From NCBI GenBank assembly GCA_044871085.1, contig JBIOZI010000377.1:1-50701 (forward strand): a stretch of DNA of 50,701 nucleotides, given 5' to 3'. This document shows positions 4,361 to 44,568 of the stretch, piece by piece; positions within the stretch are counted from its first letter, which is position 1, and each line of letters begins with the position of its first letter. Both the position numbers and the translations under genes were made by a program. Under the pieces are notes generated by a model that was given only the letters and a program-made list of their open reading frames with translations, was not told the DNA's origin and searched no databases. Source of the DNA: Steroidobacteraceae bacterium (GTDB taxonomy: Bacteria; Pseudomonadota; Gammaproteobacteria; Steroidobacterales; Steroidobacteraceae).

Positions 4361-4391
4361 CTCGTTGTTCACTCCCCTGAAGTCTCGTTGT

Positions 4392-6908: not shown

Positions 6909-6942
6909 ACTCTCTCATCCCCGCGACCCAGGAAGACACGCG

Positions 6943-9534: not shown

Positions 9535-9561
9535 TTGGGCCACGCTCGCCCGGTCCGCGGC

Positions 9562-17228: not shown

Positions 17229-17250
17229 GTAAAAGCTCCTCAACTACATC

Positions 17251-24584: not shown

Positions 24585-27359
24585 CTAGTGGGCCTCGTCC
24601 CAGTTGGCGCCGGTGCCCACGTCCACCTTGAGCGGCACGCGCAGTTGCGCCGCCGACATCATGTGGTCGCGCACCGCATCGGACACCGCGGCCACGCGGT
24701 CGGCCCGAACCTCGAGCACCAGCTCGTCGTGCACCTGCATGATGAGCCGCGCGCCGGCGTCCTCGGTGCACATCCGGTCGACGGAGATCATCGCGCGCTT
24801 GATGATGTCCGCCGCGGTGCCCTGCATGGGCGCGTTGATGGCGGCGCGTTCGGCGGCCTGCTGGAACTGCTTGTTGCGCGCGTTGATGTCCGGTAGATAG
24901 AGCCGGCGCCCGAACACGGTCTCGACGTAGCCGCGCTCCTTGGCCGCGGCGCGCGTCTCCTCCATGTAGCGCCGCACGCCCGGGTAGCGCGCGAAGTACA
25001 GGTCGATGTACTCCTGCGCCGCACCGCGCGGTATGCCGAGCTGCGCCGCGAGGCCGAAGGCGCTCATGCCGTAGATGAGGCCGAAGTTGATCGCCTTCGC
25101 CGAACGGCGCTGGTCGGCCGTCACCGTGTCGAGCGTCGCGCCGAACACCTCGGCCGCGGTCGCCTGGTGGATGTCGAGGTCGGCGGCGAACGCCGCCAGC
25201 AGCCCGGCGTCGCCGGAGAGGTGCGCCATGATGCGCAGCTCGATCTGCGAGTAATCCGCGGCCAGCAGCACGTGACCCGGCGGCGCGACGAACGCCTGGC
25301 GGATGCGCCGGCCTTCCGGCGTGCGGATCGGGATGTTCTGCAGGTTCGGGTCCTGCGACGACAGGCGCCCGGTCGCCGCCACCGCCTGGTGGTAGCAGGT
25401 GTGCACGCGGCCGGTCTTCTGGTTGATCTGCTCGGGTAGTTTGTCGGTGTAGGTGGACTTGAGCTTGGAGAGATTGCGGTGCTCGAGGATCAGCTTCGGC
25501 AGCGCGTAGCTCTCGGCGAGCTCCTCGAGCACGTCCTCGGCCGTCGACGGCTGGCCGGTGGGCGTCTTGCGCACCACCGGCAGGTTCATCTTCTCGAACA
25601 GGATGGTGCCGAGCTGCTTGGGCGAGTCGAGGTTGAACGGCGCCCCGGCTTCCTTGTGCGCCGCGGCCAGCACCTCCATGAGGCGCTTCGCCAGCTCGTG
25701 GCTCTGCTTGCGCAGCATCTCGCGATCGAGCAGCACGCCGTGCTCCTCCATGCGCGTGAGCACCGGCACGAGCGGCTGCTCGATGTCTTCGTAGAGCTTG
25801 CGCAGCGGCTCGTGCGCCGCGATCTGCGGCCACAGCACCTGGTGCAGGCGCAGCGTGACGTCGGAATCCTCGGCGGAATACTCCGCCGCCTTGTCGACCG
25901 GAACCTGGCTGAAGGAGATCTGTTTGGCGCCCTTGCCCGCGACGTCCTCGTAATGGATGGTGCGGATGCCGAGATAGCGTTCGGCGGCGGAATCCATGTC
26001 GTGCCGCAGGACGCTGTTCCACACGTACGACTCGAGCATGGAGTCGAAGCGCATGCCCTGCAGGCGGATGCCGTGGTTCGCGAGCACGTGCGCGTCGTAC
26101 TTGAGGTGGTGCCCCACCTTGGCGTGCTCCGTGGACTCCAGCAGCGGCTTGAGCCGCGCGAGGCTGGCCTCGCGGTCGAGCTGGTCGGGTGCGCCGGCGT
26201 AATCGTGCTTCAGGGGTAGATAGGCCGCGATGCCGGGCGCGACGGCGAAGGACACGCCGACGATCTCCGCCTTCATGTACTCGAGGCTGGTGGTCTCCGT
26301 ATCCACCGCGAACAGCGGCGCGGCCGCGAGCTTCGCCAGCCAATCGGTGAGCTGCGCCTCGCTGACGATGGTGTCGTAGTGGCGCGCGGCCGCGGCGATG
26401 ACCTGCGCGGCCTCGCTCACGCCCGCGGCGGCGGGCACGCCCGCGATGGGGGTCTGACCGCTCGCGGGCGGCGCATCCGGCGTGGTCGCCTCGCCGGCCG
26501 GCGCGCTCCCGTCGAGCTGGCGCAGCAGCGTGCGCAGCTCGAGGCGGGTGTACAGCGCGCGCAGGGCGGCGGTATCGGGCGCCTGCCGCGCCAGGCCGTC
26601 GAGCGACACCGGCAGCGTGAGATCGGTGCGGATGGTGGCGAGCTTGCGGGCCAGCTCGAGCGTGCCGAGCCCGGCGCGCAGGTTCTCGCCGACCTTGCCG
26701 CCGACGTTCGCGGCGTCGGCCACCAGCTTGTCGAGCGTCGAATACTGGCCTAACCACTTCGCCGCGGTCTTCGGGCCCACCTTGTCTATGCCCGGGATGT
26801 TGTCCGAGCTGTCGCCCACCAGCGCGAGGTAGTCGATGATCTGCTCGGGATAGACGTCGAACTTGGTCTTGACGCCGGCCCGATCGAGCACCGTTCCGCT
26901 CATCGTGTTGATGAGGGTAATCAGCGGCGAGACGAGCTGCGCCATGTCCTTGTCGCCGGTGGAGATGAGCACGGAGAGATTCTGGCGCGCGGCCTGGCAG
27001 GCCAGCGTGCCGATGACGTCATCGGCTTCGACTCCGGTCTCGCGCAGGATCGGCAGGCCCATGCCCTTCACCGCCTCGAACAACGGCTCGATCTGCGCGC
27101 GCAGGTCGTCGGGCATCGGCGGACGATGCGCCTTGTATTCGGCGAACAGGTCGTCGCGAAAGGTCTTGCCCGCGGCGTCGAACACCACCGCGATGCGCGC
27201 CGGGTCGTAGTCCTTGAGGAACTTCGCGAGCATGTTGAGCACACCGAGCACGGCGCCCGTGGGCTCGCCGCGCGAGGTGGTGAACGGCGGCAGCGCGTGG
27301 AACGCGCGATACAGGTAGGACGAGCCGTCGACGAGGACGAGATCCGGACGCTGGTTCAT
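24585..27359 (-). CDS. polA: DNA polymerase I
   Basis: 924 aa with a 5' nuclease N-terminus and the polymerase motifs DYSQIELR, RRSAKAINFGLIYG and QVHDELV. Confidence 0.97.
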   Translation of the reverse strand: MNQRPDLVLVDGSSYLYRAFHALPPFTTSRGEPTGAVLGVLNMLAKFLKDYDPARIAVVFDAAGKTFRDDLFAEYKAHRPPMPDDLRAQIEPLFEAVKGMGLPILRETGVEADDVIGTLACQAARQNLSVLISTGDKDMAQLVSPLITLINTMSGTVLDRAGVKTKFDVYPEQIIDYLALVGDSSDNIPGIDKVGPKTAAKWLGQYSTLDKLVADAANVGGKVGENLRAGLGTLELARKLATIRTDLTLPVSLDGLARQAPDTAALRALYTRLELRTLLRQLDGSAPAGEATTPDAPPASGQTPIAGVPAAAGVSEAAQVIAAAARHYDTIVSEAQLTDWLAKLAAAPLFAVDTETTSLEYMKAEIVGVSFAVAPGIAAYLPLKHDYAGAPDQLDREASLARLKPLLESTEHAKVGHHLKYDAHVLANHGIRLQGMRFDSMLESYVWNSVLRHDMDSAAERYLGIRTIHYEDVAGKGAKQISFSQVPVDKAAEYSAEDSDVTLRLHQVLWPQIAAHEPLRKLYEDIEQPLVPVLTRMEEHGVLLDREMLRKQSHELAKRLMEVLAAAHKEAGAPFNLDSPKQLGTILFEKMNLPVVRKTPTGQPSTAEDVLEELAESYALPKLILEHRNLSKLKSTYTDKLPEQINQKTGRVHTCYHQAVAATGRLSSQDPNLQNIPIRTPEGRRIRQAFVAPPGHVLLAADYSQIELRIMAHLSGDAGLLAAFAADLDIHQATAAEVFGATLDTVTADQRRSAKAINFGLIYGMSAFGLAAQLGIPRGAAQEYIDLYFARYPGVRRYMEETRAAAKERGYVETVFGRRLYLPDINARNKQFQQAAERAAINAPMQGTAADIIKRAMISVDRMCTEDAGARLIMQVHDELVLEVRADRVAAVSDAVRDHMMSAAQLRVPLKVDVGTGANWDEAH

Positions 27360-27369: not shown

Positions 27370-27693
27370 TCACTGCTGCGGGCGCGGTGGCGCGCCGTTT
27401 TTCTTGTCGGGTTTGCGCTGATCCTGTTCCGTTCCCTGCGGCGCCGTCACTTCGGGCGCCGGAGACGGCGGTTGCGGCGGGGAATCGACCGTGGTCGGCG
27501 AGCTGTTGCCCGCGGCGTCGTCGCCGGCCGGCGGCGGCGCGCCGGCCGGGCGCGTGACCACCGTGCCCTGCCGCGAATCGGGTAGATAGAGCCCGCCGGT
27601 CTGCCCGCAGGCGGCCAGCAGCGCGGCCGAGGCCGTGAGCAGGATCCGGAGCGCCGCGGATGCGGCGGAAAACTTGCGCATGTTCATGTTCAT
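27370..27693 (-). CDS. lptM: LptM (YifL)-like small lipoprotein
   Basis: Trimmed to MNMNMRKFSAASAALRILLTASAALLAACGQTGGLYLPD (lipobox plus the GxLYLP motif), followed by a Pro-rich tail. Its ATG overlaps the thioesterase stop (ATGA). Confidence 0.6.
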   Translation of the reverse strand: MNMNMRKFSAASAALRILLTASAALLAACGQTGGLYLPDSRQGTVVTRPAGAPPPAGDDAAGNSSPTTVDSPPQPPSPAPEVTAPQGTEQDQRKPDKKNGAPPRPQQ

Positions 27694-28163
27694 TTCCAGG
27701 ATGTCTTGTCGTCGGTGCGCGGCCGCCAGTCGACCACCGCGATGGTCAGACGCGAGACGCACACCAGTCGTTCCGCGGGATCGCGTATTTCGATGCTCCA
27801 GACCTGGCTGCGCGCGCCGATGTGGAACGGCCGTGCCGTGCCGGTGACCAGGCCCTCCGCAACCGGACGCAGGTGGTTCGCGTTGATCTCCTGCCCGAGG
27901 CAGCGGAACTTCGCGCGGTCCACCACGAAATTCGCCGCGACGCTGCCCAGCGTCTCCGCCAGCACCAGCGACGCGCCGCCGTGCAGGTAGCCCATGGGCT
28001 GGCGCGTGCGCGGCTCGACCGGCATCGTGCCGCGCAGGTAGTCGTCGCCCCATTCGGTGAACTCGATGCCGAGGTGCGGCGCGAGCAGGCCCTGCTGGCT
28101 CGCGCGCGCATCCTCCAAAGTGGGGCCGGTTGGAGCGGCCGGATTGGCGAACCAGATGGCCAT
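27690..28163 (-). CDS. PaaI-family hotdog-fold thioesterase
   Basis: Trimmed to MAIWFANP... (ATG 28161-28163). Contains ...PMGYLHGGASLVLAETLGS... Confidence 0.8.
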   Translation of the reverse strand: MAIWFANPAAPTGPTLEDARASQQGLLAPHLGIEFTEWGDDYLRGTMPVEPRTRQPMGYLHGGASLVLAETLGSVAANFVVDRAKFRCLGQEINANHLRPVAEGLVTGTARPFHIGARSQVWSIEIRDPAERLVCVSRLTIAVVDWRPRTDDKTSWK

Positions 28164-28203: not shown

Positions 28204-29388
28204 TTATTTGCGGTATTTCTCGCCGATGCGGCGATACGCCTCGCGAAACGGGATGCCTTCGCGCGCGACCAGCGCATTGGCCTCTTCGGCGGCGTGAATC
28301 GAGGGGTCGAGTTTGATCTGATCCGCGCGGAAACGCACGCCGTCCATGGCCATCGCCATGATGGCCGCCGTCGCATTGGCGAGGTCGATGCCCCTGAACA
28401 GGGGAGGCTTGATGAGCTGCAGGTCGCGCTGGTAACCCGACGGCAGCTTCGCGACGATGCCGAGCACCTCGTCGAGGCAGCTCGCCGCGACGGCGGAGCG
28501 GCCGCGCACGAGCTCGAACACGTCGGGATTGCGCTTCTGCGGCATGATCGACGAGCCGGTGGTGAACTCCGCCGGCAGCGCGACGAAGGCGAACTCCTGC
28601 GTGTAGAACAGCAGCAGGTCGCTCGCGAGGCGCCCCAGATCCTGCATGAACAGCGCGCATTCGAACAGCAGCCCGGCCTCGGCCTTGCCGCGCGCCAGCT
28701 GCACCGCCGTGACCGGCGCGTGCACCGACGCGAAGCCGAGTTTTTCGCGCGTGAGCTCGCGGTCGAGCGGCAGTCCCGGCGTGCCGTAGCCCGCGGCGGA
28801 GCCGAGCGGCGAGCGTGAGCTGCGCCGCGCGCACGCCGTGAACCCGGCCGCGTCGTCGCGCAGCTCGGAGGCGAATCCGCCGGCCCACAACGCGACGCTG
28901 CTCGGCATGGCCTGCTGCATGTGCGTGTAGCCCGGCAGCGCCACGGCGCCGTCGCGCCGCGCCAGCGCATCGAGGGCGGCGGCGCAGGCTTCCGCGGCGG
29001 CCGCGAGCTCGCGGCCCGCGTCGAGTAGATAGAGCCGCAGCGCCGTCAGCACCTGGTCGTTGCGCGAGCGGCCGAGATGCACGCGCCCGCCCGCCGGGCC
29101 GATGCGCGCCGTGAGGCGCTTCTCGAGCGCCGTCTGGCCGTCCTCGTCGGCCAGCTCGATGCGCCACTGGCCGGCCGCGTGCTCGGCCAGCAGCGCGGTC
29201 AACCCGTCCCGTATGGCGGCAAGATCGGCGGCATCGAGCAGCCGCGCGGCGTGCAAACCCTCGGCGTGCGCGATCGAGGCGCGCACGTCGTACTTCACGA
29301 GCCGCTCGTCGAGCGCATAGTCGTCGCCCGCGGTATATGCGAGCACCCGCTGGTCGAGCTCCACGCCTTTGTCCCACAGACGGCTCAT
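28204..29388 (-). CDS. argH: argininosuccinate lyase
   Basis: 394 aa with the fumarate-lyase signature GSSIMPQKRNPD. Confidence 0.9.
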   Translation of the reverse strand: MSRLWDKGVELDQRVLAYTAGDDYALDERLVKYDVRASIAHAEGLHAARLLDAADLAAIRDGLTALLAEHAAGQWRIELADEDGQTALEKRLTARIGPAGGRVHLGRSRNDQVLTALRLYLLDAGRELAAAAEACAAALDALARRDGAVALPGYTHMQQAMPSSVALWAGGFASELRDDAAGFTACARRSSRSPLGSAAGYGTPGLPLDRELTREKLGFASVHAPVTAVQLARGKAEAGLLFECALFMQDLGRLASDLLLFYTQEFAFVALPAEFTTGSSIMPQKRNPDVFELVRGRSAVAASCLDEVLGIVAKLPSGYQRDLQLIKPPLFRGIDLANATAAIMAMAMDGVRFRADQIKLDPSIHAAEEANALVAREGIPFREAYRRIGEKYRK

Positions 29389-29394: not shown

Positions 29395-30330
29395 CTACTT
29401 GCCGACCTGCTGTTCGGCCGGGGTCAGCGCGTTCACGTCGGCGACGATGAGCGTGCCCGCGCCTTCGTTGGTGAACACCTCGGCGAGAATCCCTTCCTGC
29501 GACTTGTACGACATCACGTGTACGCGCCGCACGCCGCCGCGGATGGCGTCCTCGATGGCCTTCGCCTTGGGCAGCATGCCGTCGACGATTTTCTTCTCCT
29601 CGCGCAGGCGCTTGAGGCCGGCGAGATCCGTGTACGAAATGATCGACGTCGGATCGTCGACGCGCTCGAGGATGCCGGGCGCGCCCGTGCACAACATGAG
29701 CTTCTCGGCCGAGAGCGCCGCGCCGAGCGCAGCGGCCACCGTGTCGCCGTTGATGTTGAGCAGCGTGCCGTTCTCGTCGGCGGACAGCGGGCTCACGACC
29801 GGCATCAGGCCGTTGTCGAGCAGTTTCTTGATGACGTTGGTGTCCACGGCGTCGATGTCGCCGACGAAGCCGTAGTCCACGGTCTCACCGGTGTCCGCGA
29901 GCTTCACGGGCGGGCGCTTGTGCGCCCGGATGAGCCCCGCGTCGACGCCGGAGATGCCCACCGCGTCGATGTTCATCTCGCGGCACAGCGCCAGTAGTTT
30001 GGTGTTGATCAGGCCGTTGAGCACCATCGCGGTGGCGTCGATGGCCTTCTGGTCGGTGACGCGCCGTCCCTGCACCATGCGCGTGGGCACGCCCAGCGCC
30101 TCGGTGACCTCCGTGAGCTGCGGGCCGCCGCCGTGCACGAACACCACGCGCACGCCGAAGTAATGCAGGATCGCGATCTGCTCGATGAGCGCCTTCACGG
30201 CCGCGGCGTCGGCGAATACGCCGCCGCCCGCCTTCACGACGAAGGTCTTGCCCTTGTACATGCGGATGTAGGGGGCCGCGCTGCGCAGGCTGCGAATGGC
30301 GGCGGAAGGGTCGGGGCGATGCATGATCAT
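29395..30330 (-). CDS. argB: acetylglutamate kinase (kinase-only, 311 aa)
   Basis: KGKTFVVKAGGG...VFVHGGGPQ... with no fused GNAT domain. Confidence 0.9.
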   Translation of the reverse strand: MIMHRPDPSAAIRSLRSAAPYIRMYKGKTFVVKAGGGVFADAAAVKALIEQIAILHYFGVRVVFVHGGGPQLTEVTEALGVPTRMVQGRRVTDQKAIDATAMVLNGLINTKLLALCREMNIDAVGISGVDAGLIRAHKRPPVKLADTGETVDYGFVGDIDAVDTNVIKKLLDNGLMPVVSPLSADENGTLLNINGDTVAAALGAALSAEKLMLCTGAPGILERVDDPTSIISYTDLAGLKRLREEKKIVDGMLPKAKAIEDAIRGGVRRVHVMSYKSQEGILAEVFTNEGAGTLIVADVNALTPAEQQVGK

Positions 30331-30345: not shown

Positions 30346-31353
30346 TTAGTGATGCGGCGTGGAGAGCAGGCGGTGCAGGACCGCCGCCTGCACGACCATC
30401 CGGTTGAAGGCCTCGCGCTGCACGACGCTGCGCCGGCCATCGAGCACTTCGTCGGCCACGGCGACGTTACGCCGCACCGGCAGGCAGTGCATGAGCTTGC
30501 AATCGACGGCGGCGCGCGAGAACCAGGTGTCGCGCACGCACCAGTCGGCGAGCGACGAACGGGCGCGCGCGTCGGCCTCGGCATTGCCGTAGTGCTGCGT
30601 CGAGCCCCACTCCTTGGCATAGACGACGTGCGCGCCGGTGAGCGCATCGTCGCGGTCATGGGTCTCGCGCACGCTGCCACCCGCCGCGGCCGCAGCGGCC
30701 TGTGCCTTCTGCATGATGGGCGCGGGCAGGGCGAAGCCTTCGGGCCGCAGCACCACCACTTCCATGCCGCGCATCGCCGCCATGTGCACCGTCGCGGCGG
30801 GTACCGCGAGCGGCAGCGCCCGCGGATGGTTCACCCACGACAGCACGAAGCGCGCCTTGCGTGGCACCGCGAGGTCGTCGAGCGTCTTCCAATCCGCCAG
30901 TGCCTGGCAGGGATGGTTCGCGGCGGACTCCATGTTGATGACCGGCTTCGAGACCAGGCCGGCCATTTCCTTGAATGACGTTTCCGCCAGGTCGGCTTCG
31001 AGGTCGAGGCCGCCGGCGAAGGCGCGAATGCCAAGAGCGTCACAATAGTGCGCCAATACGGGCACTCCTTCACGAACATGCTCCGCCGGAGCGCCATTCA
31101 TGACGGCGCCGCGCCGGGTCTCGAGCTGCCAGGTGCCCTGGCCGGCGGCGATGACGAACGAGGAGCCGCCGAGGCGCGCCATCGCGGCCTGCATGGACGC
31201 GAGCGTGCGCAGGCTGGGATTGAAGAAGAGCAGGCCGAGCATCTTGCCGGCCAGCGCCTGCGGCTCGGGTTTCGTGTGCAGGCGGTCGGCGAGCGCGAGC
31301 AGCTCGACGACCTGCTCGCGCGAAAGATCCGCCAGATCGAGGAAATGTTTCAT
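30346..31353 (-). CDS. argF': N-acyl-L-ornithine carbamoyltransferase (AOTCase/SOTCase-type, ArgF')
   Basis: Trimmed to MKHFLDLADLS... (ATG 31351-31353). Motifs FFNPSLRT, INMESAANHPCQ, LSWVNHPR, VVYAKEWG and HCLPVRRN match my recollection of the Xanthomonas AOTCase rather than classical OTCase (STRTR/DxxxSMG). Confidence 0.8.
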   Translation of the reverse strand: MKHFLDLADLSREQVVELLALADRLHTKPEPQALAGKMLGLLFFNPSLRTLASMQAAMARLGGSSFVIAAGQGTWQLETRRGAVMNGAPAEHVREGVPVLAHYCDALGIRAFAGGLDLEADLAETSFKEMAGLVSKPVINMESAANHPCQALADWKTLDDLAVPRKARFVLSWVNHPRALPLAVPAATVHMAAMRGMEVVVLRPEGFALPAPIMQKAQAAAAAAGGSVRETHDRDDALTGAHVVYAKEWGSTQHYGNAEADARARSSLADWCVRDTWFSRAAVDCKLMHCLPVRRNVAVADEVLDGRRSVVQREAFNRMVVQAAVLHRLLSTPHH

Positions 31354-31355: not shown

Positions 31356-32591
31356 TTATAAGTCGACGAGCGCCGCGCGCAGCCGGTCGATGTGTTCCTC
31401 TTTGAGAATGAACGCCGGCAGCAGGCGCAGGATCGCCGGATCGCCCGCGGTGCCCGCGAGGATGTCGCGGGCGAGCAGCGCCTTCTGCACGTCCTTCGCC
31501 GGTTTGTTCAGGCGCAGGCCGTGCAGGAAACCGAGACCCTGGAAATCGACCACCGGCCCTACCTTGCAGGTCTCGCGCAAGTACGCGGACACGCGGGTGA
31601 CGTTCGCCAGCAGGCCTTCCTTCTCGATCGCATCGATGGTGGCCTCGGCCACCGCGCAGGCCATGGGCCCGCCACCGAACGTGGTACCGAGATTTTCCAG
31701 TTTCAGCGACGCGGTGATCGGCGGCGTCAGCAGCAGCGCCGAGACCGGGAAGCCGTTGCCGAGCGCCTTGGCCGTCGTGATCATGTCCGGCATCACGCCG
31801 TAGTAGTTGGCTGCGAACGGCGTGCCGCTGCGGCCGACGCCGCACTGCACTTCGTCGAAGATGAGCAGCGCGCCGGTGGCGTCGCAGCGCTGGCGCAGCG
31901 CCGCGAGAAATTCCTGGCCCATGTCGAACGCGCCGCCCACGCCCTGCACGGGCTCGACGATGACGGCCGCAGTGTTCTCGGTGACGTGGTTGGCGATGTC
32001 CGCGAGGTCGCGCCGCTTGATCCAGCTCACGTCGAACGGCGCACGCGGCAGGAAGAACCATTTCTGCGGTGCCTGCCACGTGGTCGAGGCGCAGGCTGCC
32101 GTGCGGCCGTGGAAGCTGTGCTCGACCGCGGCGACGTGCGTGCGTCCGGGGCGCATCTTGAAGGCCATCTTGAACGCGTTCTCGTTGGCCTCCGCGCCCG
32201 AGTTGATCCAGAACACGCTGTCGAAGGGCAGCCGGGAGAACTTCAGCAGCGCCTGCGCGGCGCGCGCGCGGACTTCCATGGGTACGGCGTTGGTCTGGAA
32301 ATTCATCTGCGCGGCCTGGCGGCTCAACGCCTCGGTCCAGCCCTTGTGGCCGTAACCGAGCGACGCCACGGCATGGCCGCCGTACAGGTCGAGCACCTTG
32401 CGGCCGTCGCGCGTGTGCAGCCAGACGCCGTCGGCGCCCACCACTTCGAGCGGATATTGCGCGTAGACCGGCGCGAGGCCATCTGGCGGGGAGCCCGTCA
32501 TAGAAGACTGCGGGGCGCCCGCCATAGAAGACTGCGGAGAGCCCGTCGTGGAAGACGGCGCAGTGGATAGTTCGGCGTTCATGGTTTTCAT
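31356..32591 (-). CDS. argD: acetylornithine aminotransferase (class III PLP aminotransferase)
   Basis: FDEVQCGVGRSG...TTAKALGNG. I prefer the ATG at 32589-32591 (GGGACAGAGG upstream, 14 nt after the argC stop). An N-terminal low-complexity extension is encoded by a 24-bp repeat. Confidence 0.85.
   Translation of the reverse strand: MKTMNAELSTAPSSTTGSPQSSMAGAPQSSMTGSPPDGLAPVYAQYPLEVVGADGVWLHTRDGRKVLDLYGGHAVASLGYGHKGWTEALSRQAAQMNFQTNAVPMEVRARAAQALLKFSRLPFDSVFWINSGAEANENAFKMAFKMRPGRTHVAAVEHSFHGRTAACASTTWQAPQKWFFLPRAPFDVSWIKRRDLADIANHVTENTAAVIVEPVQGVGGAFDMGQEFLAALRQRCDATGALLIFDEVQCGVGRSGTPFAANYYGVMPDMITTAKALGNGFPVSALLLTPPITASLKLENLGTTFGGGPMACAVAEATIDAIEKEGLLANVTRVSAYLRETCKVGPVVDFQGLGFLHGLRLNKPAKDVQKALLARDILAGTAGDPAILRLLPAFILKEEHIDRLRAALVDL
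32494..32565. repeat. 24-bp in-frame tandem repeat (3 units) in the argD 5' end
   Basis: Units are 32494-32517, 32518-32541 (21/24 identical) and 32542-32565 (18/24). They encode TGSPQSSM / AGAPQSSM / TGSPPDGL. Confidence 0.6.
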
Positions 32592-32605
32592 TGCCTCTGT
32601 CCCGC

Positions 32606-33673
32606 TCAGGTCCAGCCGGGCGCCGCGGCGCTCAGGCCCGAAGTCTCGGGAAGACCGAACATGCGGTTCATCCACTGCACGGCGCCGCCCGCGGCGCCCT
32701 TATTCAGGTTGTCCACCACGCTCATCACCGCGACGGTGCGGCCGTTGGCGGCTGCGGACAGATGCGCGAAATTGCTGGCGACGATGTCTTTCACGCGCGG
32801 CGCGCTGTCGAGCACGCGCACGAACGGCGCGCCCGTGTAGAACTCCCGCAGCATGCCGATGACGGCCGCGGCGTCCTTCGAGGTCGTAAGCCTGGCCTGC
32901 ACCGTCGCGTGGATGCCGCGCGCGAACGGACCCGAGTGCGGCACGAACGAGTAGTCGGCGTCGATGCCGGTCGCGGCCTTCGCGAGCGCCGTGATCTCCG
33001 GCGTGTGGCGATGTCCGAGCGCGCCGTACGAATACAGGTCGCTGTGGCGCGTCGGGTGGTGCGTGCCCTCGACGGGCTTGCGGCCGGAGCCGGTGCTGCC
33101 CGTGACGCCGCTGACGAACAAGGTCGGTTCGATCCAGCCGCAGGCGAGCAGCGGCACGCTGGCGAGCAGGATGGCGGTCGAGAAGCAGCCGGGGTGCGCC
33201 ATGTGCGGCGTCGGCGCGGCTTTCAGGTGCTCGGGCACCGCGCACGTGAACTGCGCGAGCCGCTGCGGCGCGCCGTGCGGATGCTTGTACACGGACTCGT
33301 AGGCCGCGGCCGTGGCGTAGCGGAAGTCGGCGGAGATGTCGACGAAGCGCGGCTGGGTGCCCGCGGCCTCCGCCGTCTTCAGCAGCGAGTCGATCAAGCC
33401 GGCGGCCGCGCCGTGCGGCGCGGCGCAGAACACCGCCGACGTCGGCTCCCGGCCCATCAAGCCGGCGATCTGCGCCTGCGACTTGAACTCCATGTCGCCG
33501 AGCAGCGCGGCGAGATGGGGGAACGACTTGCCGGCGAGCTCGCCGGGCGAGCTGTCGGAGAGAATGCCGGCGAGCGCGAAATGCGGATGCCCGAGCAGCA
33601 GCCGGATGAGCTCGCCCGAGACATAGCCGGTGCCTCCGAGCACCACGGCGGGAATCTTGTTAGGCACGTTCAC
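32606..33673 (-). CDS. argC: N-acetyl-gamma-glutamyl-phosphate reductase
   Basis: 355 aa with a GTG start. Motifs VLGGTGYVSGELIRLL and the catalytic Cys context HPGCFSTA. Confidence 0.9.
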   Translation of the reverse strand: MNVPNKIPAVVLGGTGYVSGELIRLLLGHPHFALAGILSDSSPGELAGKSFPHLAALLGDMEFKSQAQIAGLMGREPTSAVFCAAPHGAAAGLIDSLLKTAEAAGTQPRFVDISADFRYATAAAYESVYKHPHGAPQRLAQFTCAVPEHLKAAPTPHMAHPGCFSTAILLASVPLLACGWIEPTLFVSGVTGSTGSGRKPVEGTHHPTRHSDLYSYGALGHRHTPEITALAKAATGIDADYSFVPHSGPFARGIHATVQARLTTSKDAAAVIGMLREFYTGAPFVRVLDSAPRVKDIVASNFAHLSAAANGRTVAVMSVVDNLNKGAAGGAVQWMNRMFGLPETSGLSAAAPGWT

Positions 33674-33676
33674 GCG

Positions 33677-34759
33677 TTACTCGTTCGCCGCACGCAGCGC
33701 ACGCGCCTGCGTGAGGCCGACGGACTGGATGATGGAGTCACCGAGCGCGGCGCCGGCCGACAGCGCGTTGAAGGCGGGTACCTTCAACACGTCCTGGATG
33801 ATCTGCACGCCGACGGCGTTGTCGGTCGAAGGCCCCGTCACCGCGACCGGCTCGATGCCGTAGCGCTCGCGCAGGATGTCGACGCCGCCGTAGGCCGCCA
33901 CCGGGTCGTTGGCCGAGAGCACGAGGCCGGTGATGGCCTTGCGGATGTCTTCCTGCTCGAGGATGGCGTCCACGCCGTACGTGCCCAGCAGGCCATCGCC
34001 GAGCTCGAACACGATGACATCGGGCTTCTTGTCGCACAGCTCCGTCAACATGGTGCGCGTGAGCGCCGGGCCCACCTTGCGCGTGGTCGAGACGATGCCG
34101 AAATCCGTGAAAATGAGCGTGTTGCGCGCGCCGGCGTCTTCGAACGCCATGATGTCGCGGCGCAGGGAGACGCCCGTGGCCTTGAACGCGTCGACGACCA
34201 GGCCGCGATGGCGCATGCGGCTGATGATGGCGGCGGCGGCGGCCGTCTTGCCGGCCTCCATGCACGTGCCGGCGAGCGCCACCACGGGCACGGCGCCGGT
34301 GACGAGCGGCGCGTCCGGATCGAACTTGCGATAACCCACGCGCGCCGGCACGCCGATGCGTTCGCCCAGATAGGGAAAATCCAGCACGCCGCCGATGACG
34401 CGGCAGTCGAACGGCTTGCCCTTGTCGGGATTCACCGAGTCGCACACTCCGAGCACGCCGCCGATGTTGAGCATCTGCACGATGTCGCCGGGTTTCACGC
34501 TCTCGGGTACGTGCCCGGAGTAGCCGAACAGCGCCTTGCGATGGCCGAGCGCGCCCGCGACGATGTCACCCTTGCCGACCTTCGCCATGCGGCCGCTCGT
34601 GAGCTCGAGCGTGTTGTAGGTGGACTTGTTGGTGAGTATCTCCACGACCACGACCACGCCTTCCTCGGAAGGGATGTTGTCCGTGGAAACACGCACTTCG
34701 TTGCCGAGGCCGCAGGCCTGGGTCACCGAGGCGATCTTGTCGACTACGACTGTACGCAT
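33677..34759 (-). CDS. uncharacterised 360-aa protein embedded in the arginine operon (beta-rich N-terminal half plus P-loop-like C-terminal half)
   Basis: The ATG directly abuts the argG TAA. Its own TAA is 3 nt before the argC GTG. GC3 is high. It has the Walker-A-like segment VVALAGTCMEAGKTAAAA. I recall no named family. Confidence 0.8.
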   Translation of the reverse strand: MRTVVVDKIASVTQACGLGNEVRVSTDNIPSEEGVVVVVEILTNKSTYNTLELTSGRMAKVGKGDIVAGALGHRKALFGYSGHVPESVKPGDIVQMLNIGGVLGVCDSVNPDKGKPFDCRVIGGVLDFPYLGERIGVPARVGYRKFDPDAPLVTGAVPVVALAGTCMEAGKTAAAAAIISRMRHRGLVVDAFKATGVSLRRDIMAFEDAGARNTLIFTDFGIVSTTRKVGPALTRTMLTELCDKKPDVIVFELGDGLLGTYGVDAILEQEDIRKAITGLVLSANDPVAAYGGVDILRERYGIEPVAVTGPSTDNAVGVQIIQDVLKVPAFNALSAGAALGDSIIQSVGLTQARALRAANE

Positions 34760-35959
34760 TTACTTGCCTCCCGCGCGCGCATGGAACATGCCCGTGAGCG
34801 AAACGATCTTGGAGAAGCCGAGCGCGTCCTGCGGCGTCCATTCGCCCGCGGCCTCGCCGTACACGCCGCGCGAAACCGCCATCAGCGAGTGCGGCGACTC
34901 GACGCCTTCGACGAACAAACTACCCGGGCGGAACAGCAGGTGGACCTTGCCGGTGACGCGCTCCTGCGAGGACAGCAGCAGCGCCTCGATGTCGCGGCAC
35001 ACGGGATCCAGCAGCTGGCCTTCGTGCACCCAGTCGCCGTACGGACCCGCGAGCGAATCCTTGATGCGCTGCTGGCGCGGCGTGAGCACGAGCTTCTCGA
35101 GCTCCCGGTGCGCCACCAGCAGGGTCTCCGCGGCCGGCGCCTCGAAGGCGACGCGGCCCTTGGTGCCGATGATGGTGTCGCCCAGGTGGATGCCGCGGCC
35201 GATGCCGAACGGCGCGCCGAGCGTCTCGAGCTGCTCGACCACTTCCACGGCGGACATCGACTTTCCGTCGATGCCGGTGGGGCGGCCCTTCTCGAACTCG
35301 AGGGTGTGCTTCTGCGGGGCGCGCGGGTTCGTGAACGCGTCCTTCGACAGCACCCACGCGCCGTCGGGAATGCTGCCCTCGGAAGTCAGGGTCTCCTTGC
35401 CGCCGATGGTCACGCCCCACAGCCCGCGATTGATGGAATACGCTGCGCCGAACGGCGGCACGGGGAGCTTGCGGCTCTGTAGATAGTCGAGCTCTTCCTG
35501 CCGCTTGAAGGCCCGGTCGCGCACGGGCGCGATGACTTCCAGCTCCGGCGCGAGCGTGCGCATCGCCACTTCGAAGCGCACCTGATCGTTGCCCGCCGCC
35601 GTGCAGCCATGCGCGATGGAGTTCGTACCCAGCTTGCGCGCCATCAGCGCGATGGTCTGAGCCTGCATGACGCGCTCGGCGCCGACGCACAGCGGATAGA
35701 GCTGGCCGCGGCGCACGTTGCCCATGACCAGGAAGCGCAGCACCTGCTCGAAATAGTCGGCACGCGCGTCGACCTGGTGGTGCTCGACCGCGCCCAGCGC
35801 GAGCGCTCGCTCGCGCAGCGTTTGGGCACCGGCCGCGTCGATGCCGCCCGTATCCACGGTGACCGTGATGATGGGGCGGCCATAGTTGTCCTTGAGCCAG
35901 GGCACCAGGAAGGAGGTGTCGAGGCCGCCGGAATAGGCCAGAACGATGGGGGTGGGCAT
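34760..35959 (-). CDS. argG: argininosuccinate synthase
   Basis: 399 aa, MPTPIVLAYSGGLDTS... Confidence 0.95.
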   Translation of the reverse strand: MPTPIVLAYSGGLDTSFLVPWLKDNYGRPIITVTVDTGGIDAAGAQTLRERALALGAVEHHQVDARADYFEQVLRFLVMGNVRRGQLYPLCVGAERVMQAQTIALMARKLGTNSIAHGCTAAGNDQVRFEVAMRTLAPELEVIAPVRDRAFKRQEELDYLQSRKLPVPPFGAAYSINRGLWGVTIGGKETLTSEGSIPDGAWVLSKDAFTNPRAPQKHTLEFEKGRPTGIDGKSMSAVEVVEQLETLGAPFGIGRGIHLGDTIIGTKGRVAFEAPAAETLLVAHRELEKLVLTPRQQRIKDSLAGPYGDWVHEGQLLDPVCRDIEALLLSSQERVTGKVHLLFRPGSLFVEGVESPHSLMAVSRGVYGEAAGEWTPQDALGFSKIVSLTGMFHARAGGK

Positions 35960-35965: not shown

Positions 35966-36424
35966 TCAGACTCCAAAAGCTTCGCGCAGCCGCTCGAGCA
36001 CGCGCGCCTGGGCGCGCGCGTCGGCGGTGGCGATGAAGATCGTGTCGTCGCCGGACACCGTGCCCGCGACCTCGCTCCAGCCGGCCTTGTCGATGGCGGC
36101 GGCCACGCTGCCGGCCGAGCCTATGGTGGTCTTCACCACGGTGATCGACGGGCCGGCGGTGCGCACTTCGCGCACGAACTGGGCCACGGCCGAGAACTTT
36201 TCCTGCGTGCGGGAAGCAAGTTCCGCGTTGTCGGGCAGCACGTAACCGTCGCTGTGCTTGAGCACGCCGAGCTCGCGCAGGTCGCGGCTGATGGACGACT
36301 GCGTGACCTCGTGGCCCTCGCGCTTCAGCAGGCGCACGAGCTCGTGCTGGCGGCGCACCGGGGCATGGCGCAGCAGCCGGACGATGGCGGTGCGACGCGC
36401 CTCGCGGTGATGGTCGGTCAGCAT
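35966..36424 (-). CDS. argR: arginine repressor ArgR
   Basis: Trimmed to MLTDHHREARRTAIVRLLRHAPVRRQHELVRLLKREGHEVTQSSISRDLRELG (winged helix). The C-terminal part has ...GTVSGDDTIFI. Confidence 0.85.
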   Translation of the reverse strand: MLTDHHREARRTAIVRLLRHAPVRRQHELVRLLKREGHEVTQSSISRDLRELGVLKHSDGYVLPDNAELASRTQEKFSAVAQFVREVRTAGPSITVVKTTIGSAGSVAAAIDKAGWSEVAGTVSGDDTIFIATADARAQARVLERLREAFGV

Positions 36425-36548: not shown

Positions 36549-36683
36549 TTACAGCCCCGGTGGCAGCGCAGTCGCGGCACCTTCGCCGAGCACCGTGGTC
36601 CATTCCCGGACCGTCCATTTCGTGACCAGGCCGCCGGTGACGTACGGGTCGGCCGTGGCGAATGGCTGGGGAGCGGCCCCGAA
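36549..36683 (-). pseudogene. YciI-like C-terminal fragment (gene remnant)
   Basis: Hand translation gives FGAAPQPFATADPYVTGGLVTKWTVREWTTVLGEGAATALPPGL*. The DPYVxxGL...W motif resembles the YciI C-terminus. An in-frame TGA lies at 36684-36686 and there is no start. Confidence 0.35.
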
Positions 36684-36742
36684 TCATAGTAGAGAGCGAA
36701 CGGTCTTGCGGAGTGCCGCTTCGCGCACGGCCCGGGAGGAAC

Positions 36743-37351
36743 ATGAAAATCGTCGCGCGACTGGCAACGCACACCTCGCTGCTCCTGCTGCTGGCGGCCG
36801 TGTCCCAGGCGCGCGCGGCCGTGCGCGATGGGGACCTGGTTTTCCAGACCTCGCGATCGCGCCAGAGCGAGGCGATCCAGCGCGCCACGCACTCCCCGTA
36901 CAGCCATGTCGGCATCGTGCTGTTCCGCGACGGCCAGCCCTTCGTGTTCGAGGCCATCGAGACCGTGCGATACACGCCGCTCGCGCGCTGGATCGCCCGC
37001 GGCGCGCAGGGCCGGTACGTGGTGAAGCGGCTCAAACGCGGTCTCACGCCGGCGCAGGCCGCGAAGCTGCGCGCCAGCGCCGCGCCGTTCTCCGGCCGCC
37101 GCTATGACCTGTACTTCGAATGGTCCGACGAGCGCATCTACTGCTCGGAGCTGGTCTGGAAGATGTACCGCCAGGCGCTCGGGCTCGAGCTCGGTACGCG
37201 GCAGAAGCTGCGCGAATTCGCTCTGCAGGACCCGCTGGTGCGGGTGAAATTGCGCGAGCGCTACGGAAAATTGATTCCGCTCGAAGAGCCCGTAATCTCT
37301 CCGGCTGCCGTTTTCGATTCCACCCTCCTTCAAACCATCGAGACTCAATGA
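36743..37351 (+). CDS. YiiX/YebB-like permuted papain (NlpC/P60-type) hydrolase, secreted
   Basis: GGGAGGA SD. Signal peptide is MKIVARLATHTSLLLLLAAVSQARA. Motifs DGDLVFQTSRSRQSEAIQRATHSPYSHVGIV and RIYCSELVWKMY. Confidence 0.7.
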   Translation: MKIVARLATHTSLLLLLAAVSQARAAVRDGDLVFQTSRSRQSEAIQRATHSPYSHVGIVLFRDGQPFVFEAIETVRYTPLARWIARGAQGRYVVKRLKRGLTPAQAAKLRASAAPFSGRRYDLYFEWSDERIYCSELVWKMYRQALGLELGTRQKLREFALQDPLVRVKLRERYGKLIPLEEPVISPAAVFDSTLLQTIETQ

Positions 37352-38239: not shown

Positions 38240-38887
38240 CTATCGCGCGTGGCGGAACGTGAGGTTGTAACGGAAGCCGCCGGTGACGGGATGGGTGCCG
38301 GGCTTCACAGGCCGCACCGCGTGATAGACCAGCCGCGACGGCCCGCCCCACACCAGCACGTCGCCGTCGCGCAGCGCCACGCTGCGGCCTTTGCCGCCGC
38401 GCGTGAGGCCGTAGAACGCGAAGCTCGCCGGCAGGCCGAGTGACACGGACACGATGGGCTGCGCGAAATTCTGCTCGTCGGCGTCGCGATGCGCGGTGAG
38501 CCGCGCCCCAGGCACATAGCGGTTGACGAGGCAGGCGTCGGGCACGAATTCCGGGAAGCCGCCGAGCGCCGCCGCCTCGAGCGCCACGGCGACGAACTCT
38601 TCCGGCATCGCCGGCCAGTCGCGATCGGTGAGCGGATCGCGCGAGCTGTAGCGGTAGCCGCTGCGATCGCTGACCCAGCCCACCGGGCCGCAGTTCGTCA
38701 TCGCGACGGACATCGTCTGCCCGCCGGGCGTCACGAGATGGCGGAACGGCGCGCGCGCGGCCACGGCTTCGATGAGTGGAAACAGCCGCGCGCTGTCCGA
38801 GAAGCCGCGCAGCAACGTGATGCCGGCGTCCAGCGGCACCACTTCGGGCGCGCCGGGGCGGGTAAGCGGCAGCTCGAGCGTGCTCAT
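38240..38887 (-). CDS. alkB: alpha-ketoglutarate-dependent DNA dioxygenase AlkB
   Basis: Trimmed to MSTLELPLTRPG... (ATG 38885-38887, overlapping the tamB stop as ATGA). Motifs HRDADE and RYNLTFR. Confidence 0.85.
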   Translation of the reverse strand: MSTLELPLTRPGAPEVVPLDAGITLLRGFSDSARLFPLIEAVAARAPFRHLVTPGGQTMSVAMTNCGPVGWVSDRSGYRYSSRDPLTDRDWPAMPEEFVAVALEAAALGGFPEFVPDACLVNRYVPGARLTAHRDADEQNFAQPIVSVSLGLPASFAFYGLTRGGKGRSVALRDGDVLVWGGPSRLVYHAVRPVKPGTHPVTGGFRYNLTFRHAR

Positions 38888-41800
38888 TTCTCGATGGTGA
38901 ACACGAGATCGGCGCCGCGATCCTTGCCAGCCGCCTCGGTCTTGATGGTCCAGTGCTCGTCGAGCGTGTACTGCAGCTTGATGGTGCTGATGGCCTCGGC
39001 GAGCGAGACGCCGTAGCTCACGTACAGGCGCGGCGAGAAATAACGCCCCAGCACCAGCGAAGTTTCGTTCGACAGGTCCGACTCGACGCTGATGTCGGGA
39101 ATTCCGAGCTTGCCTCCGAGCTGCGAGGCGAGGATGGCCGCCGCCTGGCCCACCGCTTCCTGCCGGCCGGTGCCGGCGCGGTCGGACTGCTGCACCGAAT
39201 CGAGCGACGAGCCCGCGAGAATGATGCCGACGATCTGCGATTGCGGGATCATCGGCTCGGAGAAGAACGACAGCCGCGGCTCGCGCAGCGTGCCGCGCAC
39301 GTTCACGCCGGCCTTCACGTCGGGGAAGATCTTCACGGCGCGAATGTCGATGACGGGATCCGCCAGCAGACCGCCGTTGTAGATGAGCCGGCCGCGCTCG
39401 ATGTCGAGCTTGCGCGCCAGCGCAACGTACTGGCCCTTGGATACCTGCACCTCGCCCGAGGCGCGCGTCGGCTGGTCGGGCATCGAGATGGCGGTGATGC
39501 TGCCCGTGAGCTGGCCCGAGAGGCCGTAGGTCTCGATGCTGACGTCGTCGCCGAGCGTCATCGTGATCTTGCTCTCGACCAGGAACGGGTCGCTCTCCGC
39601 TTCCTCCGTCGGCCCGACCAGCCTCTCGTCGGGCGACGACAGCACGGCGTTGGTGAGCTCGGCGGGTCGGATGCGCGCCAGCGGTAGTTTGACCTCGCCG
39701 GTCACCAGCATCTTGCGCCCCTCGATCGCGAAGTTGAGGTCCGGCGACGCGTCGATGCGCGCCTCCGGGACGTCGACCACGCGCAGGTTCTTGCCCGACA
39801 CGCGCAGGTCGCCATAGGGGAGATTGTCGCGCCACGCGAGTTTGCCCGAGCTCGCGACCGAGCCCGCGCCGGCATTCGCCGCCGCGCTGAACTCGAGGTT
39901 GTTGGAGGCGATGCGCGCCTGTGCTTCGACGCCGCGCAGTGCGAGGTTGAGCTGGTAGAGATCGAGCTCGGCGCCCGACAGCCGGACGAGCCCGCTGGCG
40001 TTGGGTCGCCCGACGGTTCCGGCGAAGCTCAGGTCGAGGTCGAAGTGGCCGCTGGCGCGGTCGACGGCGGGTAGATAGAGAGTGATGAAGCCGAGCTCGC
40101 CGATCGCCATCTGCAGCTGGCCGCGCAGCGGCCAGGCGCGCACGTCACCCGCGGTGCGCTCGGCGCGCATGCGGCCGGCGATCAGGCCGCGCGCCGCGGC
40201 GTCGAGGCGCAGCTCGCCGAGCACGTGGTCGGCCTCGGCGCGCGCGGTGACGAACCCCGAGCCGAACGTGATGACGTCGGTGCGCCCGCTCGCTAGCTTG
40301 TGGCGGATGGCGGCGTCGACCAGGTCAACGCGCGCCTCGCCGGTGAACGGCGCGCCGCCGGTCGCGCTCGCGCTGGCGGTGGCATTGACGGTGCCCTGGT
40401 ATTCGACGCGGGGCGTGAAGCCGGCGGTCAGGGTGCTGATCGGCAGGTTGTGCGCATCGCCCTTCGCGGCCCAGCCGTGCGGGCTCCAGTTGCCCTCGGC
40501 GCACAGCTTCGCGACCTTGCCGAGCAGACACAGCGCTTCGAGCTTGAAGGCATCGGCGCTGGCCACCACCGCCGCGGGCGCGTCGAGCCGCAGGTTGACG
40601 TTCGATGTGTCGTCGATGACGAGGTTGGTGATGGTGCCGGTCCAGGTGCCGTTCGTGAACCCGCCCTTGCCGTTCAGATGCAGGCTGGTCTTGCCGGCGA
40701 GCGTGTCGACTTTGAGCGCATGGTTGCCGGTGGTGCCGTCGAGCATCAGGTTGAACTGGGTGACGCCGTGCTCGCCGACCATGACGCGCGACAGGGCGAC
40801 GTCGGCGTGCGAGACACGCTGGCCGCGCCAGTCGACGTCGATGTTGGCGCCGATCTTGTCGATCTTCACGTCCTCGCGCGCCAGGCCGGAACCCTGGGCG
40901 CTGAGCCTGACTACCGGCGCCTCGGTGCTGCCGCCGATGCGGCCGTGCGCGTGCAGCTCGCCGCGCGCGCCGTCGAGCAGCAGCCCGAGGTTGTCGGCAT
41001 CGATGCTGAAGTCGAGATTGAGCGGCCGCGCGCCGCCGAGCTCGCCGTCGAGGGCGACGGCCAGGTTGCCGGCGCGCAGTCGCAGCGTGTCGAAGGTCCA
41101 TTCCTCGCCGTGCTTGCGCACGCTGCCCCCGCCCGACGCGGCGCTGCCGCGCAGCTTGCCGCTGATGCGGCCGAAGGCCACGTCGAGGTCGCCGTCGGAG
41201 CCGAACGGCTTGCCGCTGGCGTCGAGCTCGAAGTCGAGCGCGCCGGCGAAGCCGGGCCGCAGCGTCGCGGGGTCGAAGCCGTGCACGCTGCCTTTGAGAG
41301 CCCAGCTCTCCCCGGGTGTCCAGCGCGCCTCGCCCGCGAGCCGTGCGCTGCCGCCGAACGCGCCGAGATCGAGCTGCTCGATGGCGAGATGGTCCTTGTG
41401 GAGCGCGCCGTGCACCGCTACCGTCATCGGATCGAGTTGCGGCACGTACAGATCGCCGGACGCAGTCAGCGCGTAAGGCCACAGTCCCTCGAGCCGGTAG
41501 GTGCCCGCCGGGCTCGCGAAGACCTGCGGCGTCTGTGCGGTGAACGCCTGCGCGAGCGGCCAGCGCAGGCCTTGCCAGTCGCCTTCCAGCAGTAGTTTGG
41601 GGCCGTTCTCGGCCGTCTCGATGGTGCCGGCGCCCGTGACGTGGCTGCCGGTGGCGCGATGCGTGACCTCGTAGCGGGTGGCGTTCACGACGCGGTCGGC
41701 GTAATAGCCCGCGAACGAGGTGTCGAACGGCCCGGCGCCGAGGCCCGGCACCGCGAGCGGGCCGCGCGCGTGAAAGGCGTTCATCTCGCCGCCCACGTCG

Positions 41801-44480: not shown

Positions 44481-44568
44481 GACACCGCTTGTGGGCGGAG
44501 AAAGACTCAAGATTCTAATGAGAGTCCACGTCTCACGCGCGGGTTCCTCTCCGGAAAGCAGATGTCCG

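Follow-up and report, generated by a model that had tools for sequence, protein, structure and literature searches.

A stretch of 50,701 nucleotides (nt) from a Steroidobacteraceae bacterium (contig JBIOZI010000377.1, assembly GCA_044871085.1; hereafter the window) carries on its minus strand an arginine operon in the order argR-argG-X-argC-argD-argF'-argB-argH. The gene denoted here as open reading frame X (ORF X) encodes 360 amino acids (aa) and belongs to no named family, which raises the question of which step of arginine synthesis, if any, its product serves. The first step of this pathway is a recurrent gap in the reconstruction of bacterial metabolism. From gene neighbourhoods, sequence comparisons and a predicted structure we conclude that ORF X probably makes N-succinyl-L-glutamate and would thereby supply the missing first step (ArgA) of a succinyl-type arginine pathway.

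ORF X is a real gene packed between argG and argC

The ATG of ORF X (34759-34757) directly follows the TAA of argG (34762-34760) with zero spacer, and a Shine-Dalgarno sequence precedes it within the argG coding region (Table 1). At the other end, 3 nt (CGC) separate its TAA (33679-33677) from the GTG of argC (33673-33671). The G+C content at third codon positions (GC3) is 0.91, compared with 0.87-0.94 in the neighbouring genes. Both the near-spacerless packing and the neighbour-like composition had been pointed out in a first-pass annotation of the window, made from the letters alone, and both were borne out: ORF X is a real gene. A scan for promoters and terminators inside the operon returned nothing beyond the expectation from shuffled sequence. 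An antisense ORF of 963 aa (32591-35482, plus strand) spans ORF X and parts of argG and argC; it was rejected as a gene because it fails the coding filter (GC3 > 0.80, GC2 < 0.60), as is typical of artefacts in high-GC DNA.

Linkage to argC survives rearrangement of the operon

A genome collection with one genome per species was scanned with a 12-sequence alignment of the family. At least 593 stretches, out of 599 candidates listed, encode a relative, and those listed come only from Steroidobacterales. We examined the best 80 of these loci, as well as 80 metagenomic loci from outside this order whose X proteins share no more than 41-50% identity with that of the window. Loci were regarded as informative when at least 700 nt were available downstream of X, and argC was counted when it began within about -50 to +140 nt. 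On this basis argC lies directly downstream of X in 138 of the 144 informative loci (77 of 77 in Steroidobacterales and 61 of 67 elsewhere), and the six loci that lack it are deliberately chosen oddities, including a fusion, a fungal copy, a copy linked to a RimK-type gene and L091.

Nearly all of the 80 Steroidobacterales loci share the gene order of the window, and seven of them are X-argC-argB mini-clusters. Among the loci with 41-50% identity three layouts were found. The first, argR-argG-X-argC-argD-argF'-argB-(M20)-argH, resembles that of the window with an optional M20 gene; the second, argR-X-argC-argD-argB, combines X with genes for early steps only (ArgB, ArgC and ArgD); and in the third, argD-argF'-argB-M20-argH-argG-X-argC, every step other than ArgA has a recognisable gene. 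Because the linkage to argC survives such rearrangement at 41-50% identity, it constitutes strong evidence for a role of ORF X in arginine synthesis. The tie to the arginine genes that the first-pass annotation had drawn from one operon, and for which it had suggested a survey of gene neighbourhoods, holds in relatives.

In four contigs from three metagenome samples X is fused to an ArgB-like amino-acid kinase (Table 1), an arrangement that resembles the kinase-acyltransferase architecture of classical ArgA. This fusion stands alone beside a divergent arginase gene (rocF, 230 bits), outside any arg operon. A further fusion, of X to ArgC (P0184), was discarded as evidence because several neighbouring genes on its contig are also fused, which indicates assembly frameshifts. 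On a long-read metagenome contig (L084, 6309-13676) the pairs argR and argG, X and argC, and argF' and argB were all predicted as single fused proteins. Frameshift artefacts, and not domain fusions, are the most likely cause.

ORF X fits the ArgA step of a succinyl-type pathway

The first-pass annotation had observed that ArgB of the window is the short form and that no ArgA, ArgJ or M20-type ArgE is apparent, and had left ORF X as a candidate for either of two missing steps, the N-acyl-glutamate synthase or the deacylase. The observations proved accurate. ArgB has 311 aa and matches only the kinase half of ArgA models; no GNAT, ArgJ or M20 protein was detected among 20 other candidate ORFs of the window that were scanned with Pfam (not every ORF), and an M20 query gave no tblastn match in the window.

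The two steps could be separated with the help of the more distant operons, where the gene between argB and argH outside Steroidobacterales encodes an M20 deacylase of the ArgE/DapE family (for example L143 13356-14474 and L157 4361-5443). It carries the H-x-D-T-V-P motif and scores 125-142 bits with TIGR01910, which is under the curated cut-off, and it is likely the N-succinyl-citrulline desuccinylase. A homologue was found neither in the window nor in any of the 80 Steroidobacterales loci, in which, as a guess, a housekeeping DapE could supply the activity. Because X and the M20 gene coexist in the same operons, X is almost certainly not the deacylase, an activity for which a P-loop fold would in any case be unlikely; of the two steps originally proposed, the synthase stands and the deacylase falls away. 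ArgA is the step that fits, because the third layout fills all steps but this one, the second holds early genes only, and X occurs fused to an ArgB-like kinase.

The acyl group was narrowed down by means of ArgF'. The transcarbamylase had been read as an acyl-ornithine type, which its match to NF003384 (Table 1) supports, and its best match in the Protein Data Bank (PDB) is 3L02, in which the Xanthomonas N-acetylornithine transcarbamylase carries the mutation E92A. The window protein reads G-A-P-A-E-H where the wild-type Xanthomonas enzyme has G-D-T-E-E-H. Alanine occupies position 92 in 61 of 61 related loci, and among 94 X-linked ArgF' proteins this position is Ala (82), Val (5), Pro (5), Ile (1) or Gly (1), never Glu. 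As Shi et al. (2007) are cited in the GapMind preprint (bioRxiv 10.1101/2024.10.14.618325), Ala, Pro, Ser or Val at position 92 switches the transcarbamylase to N-succinyl-ornithine. Judged by this residue the window ArgF' is of the succinyl type and, because the X-linked ArgF' proteins lack Glu at position 92, the pathway is predicted to run on succinylated intermediates.

The pathway role, acyl donor and substrates that we infer for ORF X are as follows. The protein would succinylate L-glutamate at its alpha-amino group, and the resulting N-succinyl-L-glutamate would be carried on by ArgB, ArgC, ArgD and ArgF' to N-succinyl-citrulline.

The role was predicted earlier for a Steroidobacter protein

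In Appendix 2 of the GapMind 2026 preprint (bioRxiv 10.1101/2024.10.14.618325) the Steroidobacter denitrificans protein ACG33_RS14135 is predicted to be an N-succinyl-L-glutamate synthase, by analogy with DgcN. The grounds given there are a conserved location in arg clusters, the absence of an ArgA homologue from genomes that contain the family, and the argument from position 92; ArgA and ArgE are both reported missing in S. denitrificans (bioRxiv 10.1101/2024.10.14.618325). The preprint came to this role independently of our analysis. In our literature search it was the only paper found on a protein of this type, and it offers a prediction without experiment. The window gene shares with ACG33_RS14135 the location in an arg cluster and an ArgF' with a residue other than Glu (Ala) at position 92. 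Both are hypothetical proteins from the same taxonomic neighbourhood, with the same position in the cluster, a succinyl-type ArgF' and the same proposed role, and the 71-93% identity of the window protein to its counterparts at this operon position in Steroidobacteraceae suggests that ORF X is orthologous to ACG33_RS14135. ORF X is a new member of a predicted enzyme family. The idea of its role is not new, and the novelty of our assignment is limited because the preprint had already predicted it.

A large family without a domain model

Searches of Pfam, NCBIfam and PDB sequences with the single ORF X protein gave nothing above threshold. The best sub-threshold matches all fall on P-loop segments (DUF1611, E = 0.04; MobB, E = 0.001; the N-terminus of CobQ/CobB), which agrees with the description 'BioD/DUF1611-like but unplaced' in the first-pass annotation. 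In the profile searches that it had proposed, no confident match to an unrelated family emerged. For GNAT, ArgJ and M20 peptidase domains there was no Pfam or NCBIfam match in ORF X even at E <= 10.

Homologues are nevertheless numerous. A word-indexed search returned more than 6,493, and all those named in their source are labelled 'hypothetical protein'. Among the named homologues the best are encoded in metagenome-assembled genomes (MAGs) of Steroidobacteraceae and Acidibacter (77-92% identity), and the best matches in the genome collection from Steroidobacteraceae MAGs (71-93%). An exhaustive search of representatives at 50% identity gave 1,436 clusters at E <= 1e-3, of which 194 reached E <= 1e-30, with full-length members reaching down to about 30% identity. 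In metagenomes the family is abundant, in those from soil and freshwater as well as in marine ones, and at present it has neither a Pfam nor an NCBIfam model.

A BioD-like P-loop domain behind a new beta domain

An AlphaFold2 model of ORF X, calculated from a 45-sequence alignment, has a mean predicted local distance difference test score (pLDDT) of 95.3 and a predicted template-modelling (TM) score of 0.91, and it shows two domains (Table 1). The first-pass annotation had described the N-terminal half as beta-rich, had likened the C-terminal half to P-loop domains of the BioD/DUF1611 kind, and had recommended structure prediction followed by Foldseek. The model agrees with the former over about residues 1-140, and Foldseek, a profile search of PDB sequences and hhalign agree with the latter.

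Foldseek with the whole model placed BioD first (1DAE, E = 4e-6, target TM 0.56-0.59), followed by the GTPases of the signal recognition particle (SRP) and HypB. The DUF1611 structure 2OBN ranked 27th (E = 5e-5, target TM 0.40), and 7XRJ was absent from the top 50. The N-terminal domain, modelled with a pLDDT of 91 when taken alone, had no Foldseek match in the PDB (best E = 0.56, TM <= 0.28). Residue conservation was counted over 169 homologues. In this domain E52 and R74 are invariant and D65 is present in 156 of 169; it presumably binds the amino-acid substrate.

The profile comparisons gave the same ranking as the fold comparison. With the family profile, BioD was the only PDB sequence match at E < 1e-3 (Mycobacterium tuberculosis BioD, E = 3e-4), with an alignment that covers the P-loop, the K-x-T-G motif and one Asp. 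In hhalign the family profile matched E. coli BioD with a probability of 71% (E = 3.9e-5, 102 columns) and a DgcN/DUF1611 profile with a probability of 2% (E = 0.024, 39 columns), the latter built from genuine plasmid genes, two of which are paired with dgcA. By profile and by fold the ORF X family is nearer to ATP-dependent BioD than to DgcN. The hhalign alignment matches the BioD P-loop, Lys37 and Glu115 positions in X (GTCMEAGKT, K193 and E252), except that Thr11 is replaced by Met.

Five residues of ORF X (K171, T172, K193, D202 and E252) can be equated by alignment with ATP/Mg residues of BioD, and two of the pairings are approximate. The equivalence is firmest for K171, T172, K193 and E252. 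In BioD these residues hold Mg-ATP and stabilise phosphoryl transfer to a carboxylate-type oxygen. Cys166 is present in 163 of 169 close homologues; a catalytic role for it, through a thioester, was rejected because the Cys is replaced in remoter arg-linked members such as P0225, which has 'ATRM'.

Reaction chemistry and alternative explanations

The chemistry that we favour is that Mg-ATP would activate succinate as an acyl-phosphate (succinyl phosphate), which the glutamate amine would then attack. BioD, CobB/CobQ and, with another fold, ArgX/LysX take an ATP-dependent acyl-phosphate route. By analogy ORF X may be an ATP-dependent succinate:L-glutamate ligase, made of a BioD-like P-loop domain and a new beta domain and using free succinate, with neither acyl-CoA (coenzyme A) nor a GNAT fold; this more specific proposal is tentative, and we hold it with less than even confidence.

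Several observations weigh against the proposed role or this chemistry. The similarity of X to known families is weak, with TM values of about 0.4-0.6 and profile matches limited to part of the P-loop domain. A nearly invariant Met167 replaces Thr11 of BioD, and the equivalence of D202 with BioD Asp54 is ambiguous since two alignments disagree: HMMER places D202 in the acidic GDD segment of BioD, not clearly at the Mg-ligand Asp, and hhalign does not align it there. Remote family members lie outside arg operons, the archaeal-type copies beside RimK-family ligases and one copy in a fungal setting. To our knowledge DgcN is the only characterised enzyme with a P-loop fold that N-acylates glutamate, and the search for argA and argJ covered ORFs scanned within the 50.7 kb of the window. 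GapMind, finally, obtained a weak Foldseek match of ACG33_RS14135 to DgcN (7XRJ, with a root-mean-square deviation of 5.6 Å, E = 1.4e-7; bioRxiv 10.1101/2024.10.14.618325).

The last observation also speaks for the GapMind reading, in which the role is the same and succinyl is transferred from succinyl-CoA in the manner of DgcN, the P-loop holding the phosphates of CoA with no hydrolysis of ATP. The presence of 2OBN among our own Foldseek matches, the weak Pfam matches to DUF1611 (E = 0.04 and 0.0016) and the spacing of K-x-T-G, which fits the DUF1611 motif x-A-T-G-Q-T-G better than K-P-V-x-S-G of BioD, point in the same direction. We know of no characterised N-acyl-glutamate synthase, other than the ArgJ-type transacetylases, that does not use acyl-CoA. 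Against transfer from succinyl-CoA stand the negligible profile similarity to DgcN in comparison with BioD, the lack of an NCBIfam DgcN match, and a beta-rich N-terminal domain with no PDB neighbour where DUF1611 proteins have a Rossmann-like one. Moreover, G-K-T and the Lys37 equivalent are invariant in X and lost in DgcN, which would be unexpected for a site that binds CoA only. On balance we consider this donor somewhat less probable than ATP-dependent ligation.

Considerably less probable is that X does not catalyse the ArgA step at all and is instead an accessory or regulatory nucleoside triphosphatase (NTPase), or a second kinase-like partner of ArgC that channels or protects the labile acyl-glutamyl phosphate, ArgA being encoded elsewhere. 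The near-invariant adjacency specifically to argC would suit such a partner, as would a fold class rich in non-catalytic or chaperone NTPases (HypB, MobB, SRP GTPases) and the restriction of our argA/argJ assessment to the window. Complete operon layouts, however, leave just the ArgA step unfilled, and GapMind found no ArgA homologue in genomes with the family; ArgB is present beside X and in one lineage fused to it, and both domains of X contain many invariant polar residues that resemble an active site.

An ArgJ-like transacylase, which would move succinyl from N-succinyl-citrulline or N-succinyl-ornithine to glutamate, could fill the ArgA and ArgE gaps of Steroidobacterales at once. It would explain why both enzymes are reported missing in S. 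denitrificans and why the window and the 80 Steroidobacterales loci all lack an M20 deacylase, yet we regard it as very improbable. The M20 gene in X operons outside the order implies a linear pathway there, the loss of Cys166 in remoter arg-linked members makes a thioester intermediate unlikely, and a housekeeping DapE could desuccinylate in Steroidobacterales. Nor is a P-loop fold known to us to carry out acyl transfer from an amide to an amine. That X is itself the missing N-succinyl-citrulline desuccinylase is hardly credible: neither the operon nor the window ORFs scanned include an ArgE either, but relatives share their operons with the M20 gene, the argR-X-argC-argD-argB clusters hold early-pathway genes only, and the P-loop fold has no metallo-hydrolase signature.

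Remote members of the family

Because remote members sit outside arg operons, the family cannot be uniformly ArgA, and as a whole it probably covers more than one reaction. On archaeal-looking contigs (L092/L093, 7132-10136, and L089/L090) a RimK-family alpha-L-glutamate ligase gene (TIGR00768, 205 bits; close to LysX/MptN) was found, whose 4-nt overlap is with the beginning of P0265, a remote paralogue of X; a second X paralogue is convergent. Another remote member, P0175, also adjoins a RimK-type gene. These branches suggest a different, glutamate-related role. A full-length homologue of 351 aa with 32% identity (P0247; L085, 8001-9056) lies on a fungal-looking contig of assembly GCA_009193465.1; its neighbours include genes for citrate synthase, EF3 and a transcription factor of the Zn-cluster type, with no arg genes nearby, and it could be the result of horizontal transfer or have a distinct function.

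Features of the operon and its surroundings

The coordinates of the operon genes, the domains and the residues of ORF X are collected in Table 1. In the 80 related loci argR lies upstream of argG in 68. The argD ORF as listed (31356-32675) appears over-extended, and ATG 32594, 12 nt past the argC stop codon, is its likely start. With the first start codon the ORF would overlap argC by 70 nt, and its N-terminal part (32510-32675, minus strand) contains a low-complexity stretch with the near-repeat GSPQSSMAGAPQSSMTGSPP, which is still translated if ATG 32594 is used.

Table 1. Coordinates of the genes, signals, domains and residues described in the text
Feature	Position	Strand	Basis and remarks
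argR (arginine repressor), heading the operon	35966..36424	-	Assigned by 38% identity to an L088 gene with PF01316/PF02863 (Arg_repressor)
argG (argininosuccinate synthase)	34760..35959	-	TIGR00032, 271 bits (cut-off 268)
GGAGG Shine-Dalgarno	34767..34771	-	Read from sequence; within argG 3' end, 7 nt upstream of ORF X ATG
ORF X (360 aa), candidate N-succinyl-L-glutamate synth(et)ase replacing ArgA	33677..34759	-	ORF and junctions, GC3, homologues, AlphaFold2 model
N-terminal beta-rich domain, about residues 1-140	34340..34759	-	AlphaFold2 model; E52, R74, P85, G101 and G123 invariant or nearly so
C-terminal BioD-like (SIMIBI) P-loop alpha/beta domain, about residues 155-350	33710..34297	-	Foldseek, profile against PDB sequences, hhalign
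P-loop G164-T-C-M-E-A-G-K171-T172	34244..34270	-	Aligned to BioD P-loop (GTDTEVGKT); K171 and T172 in 169/169
K193, motif K-x-T-G, against BioD Lys37	34181..34183	-	hhalign; 169/169
D202, motif R-D, possible equivalent of BioD Mg-site Asp	34154..34156	-	Ambiguous; 168/169
E252 in D-V-I-V-F-E-L-G-D-G, Walker-B-like Glu against BioD Glu115 (VEGAGG)	34004..34006	-	hhalign; 169/169
argC	32606..33673	-	TIGR01850, 270 bits; adjoins ORF X 3' end
argD (N-acyl-ornithine aminotransferase)	31356..32594	-	NCBIfam argD-family transaminase, 309 bits, under curated cut-off
argF' (N-acyl-ornithine carbamoyltransferase)	30346..31353	-	NF003384 (N-acetylornithine carbamoyltransferase), 335 bits (cut-off 288); Ala at the Glu92 position of N-acetylornithine transcarbamylase (AOTCase)
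argB, short, kinase-only, without acyltransferase domain	29395..30330	-	311 aa; match to the ArgA model (441 positions) confined to 6-292 (kinase half)
argH (argininosuccinate lyase)	28204..29388	-	TIGR00838, 290 bits
X-ArgB-like kinase fusion	L081, about 7899-9881 (also L082, L083)		626 aa as called; X part runs upstream of called start

Two genes next to the operon were considered and set aside. A hotdog-fold acyl-CoA thioesterase (TIGR00369, 120 bits; EntH/MenI-like) is encoded at 27690-28163 (minus strand), 40 nt downstream of argH, and a homologue is present in 29 of the 80 Steroidobacterales loci and immediately follows argH in about 20 of these; it was not counted as a member of the arginine pathway since its adjacency is only partly conserved and it has no evident role. 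A permuted papain-like amidase of family C92 (YaeF/YiiX family; 36662-37351, plus strand), divergent from argR, was rejected as the missing deacylase because it has an apparent signal peptide and adjoins argR in just 2 of the 80 loci; it is probably unrelated to the operon. Elsewhere the window holds housekeeping genes, namely those for a XerC/D-type recombinase with DUF484, a TamA/TamB pair and an ammonium transporter (2717-4372, 38884-44510 and 15789-17243, all minus strand), as well as polA (24585-27359) and a gene for a GH106-like protein (6778-9534).

Comparison with known systems

If ORF X does replace ArgA, it would close the gap at the first step for Steroidobacterales and several other lineages, and it would represent a third unrelated fold, after GNAT and ArgJ, for the synthesis of N-acyl-glutamate. 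ATP-dependent ligation of free succinate, if this is the chemistry, would be a new reaction at this step and would put the P-loop scaffold of the BioD type to a new use.

BioD (PDB 1DAE and 3FGN), an ATP-dependent SIMIBI P-loop enzyme that forms a C-N bond, shares with X the P-loop G-T-x-x-x-x-G-K-T, and the equivalents of its Lys37 and Glu115 are invariant in X. It is a single-domain protein of about 225 aa found in a biotin context, whereas X has two domains and 360 aa, about 140 of which form the additional beta domain at the N-terminus, and occurs in an arginine context; about 100 of its 360 residues can be aligned with BioD. The BioD family models (PF13500 and NCBIfam bioD) gave no match above cut-off for the window protein, and one relative reached 19 bits with AAA_26, where the cut-off is 27.

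DgcN, a D-glutamate N-acetyltransferase of the DUF1611 family (PF07755; PDB 7XRJ, 2OBN and 2G0T), is, like X, a member of the broad P-loop superfamily, and its target is the glutamate amino group; it reportedly uses acetyl-CoA. The spacing of its G-T-x-x-x-x-G-K and x-A/L-T-G motifs is similar to that in X. Its sequences G-K-[MK]-x-T and [LV]-A-T-G-Q-T-G, however, have no Thr following the Lys of the P-loop and no equivalent of Lys37, both of which X keeps. The DUF1611/DgcN motifs G-T-D-C-x-V-G-K-[MK]-x-T, A-T-G-Q-T-G and V-E-G-Q-G-S are not matched in X, which has G-T-C-M-x-x-G-K-T, K-x-T-G-V and E-L-G-D-G. PF07755 matched just 40 residues of ORF X and scored 13.8 bits, where the cut-off is 25. 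There was no Pfam match to DUF1611_N, a Rossmann-like domain, in the N-terminal 140 residues, which are nearly all beta. In genome context DgcN is paired with the racemase DgcA in catabolism and not with arg genes, whereas X lies in arg operons.

The proposed reaction is shared with the BT3761-type N-succinyl-glutamate synthase of Bacteroides, whose role has genetic support and whose operon is similar (argR, argG, argC, argD and a succinyl-type argF'; PMC8121099). BT3761 has a GNAT fold and presumably uses succinyl-CoA, while X shows no similarity to GNAT proteins.

The remaining parallel is with ArgX/LysX, the RimK-family enzymes of the LysW carrier pathway, next to relatives of which the remote X paralogues are encoded. 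ArgX/LysX protect the alpha-amino group of glutamate in an ATP-dependent manner in the first step of arginine synthesis. They do so with an ATP-grasp fold and with the carboxylate of a carrier protein as acyl donor, whereas X has a P-loop fold. Should the ligase chemistry hold, ORF X would be the P-loop counterpart of this ATP-grasp strategy and the founding member of a new enzyme class.

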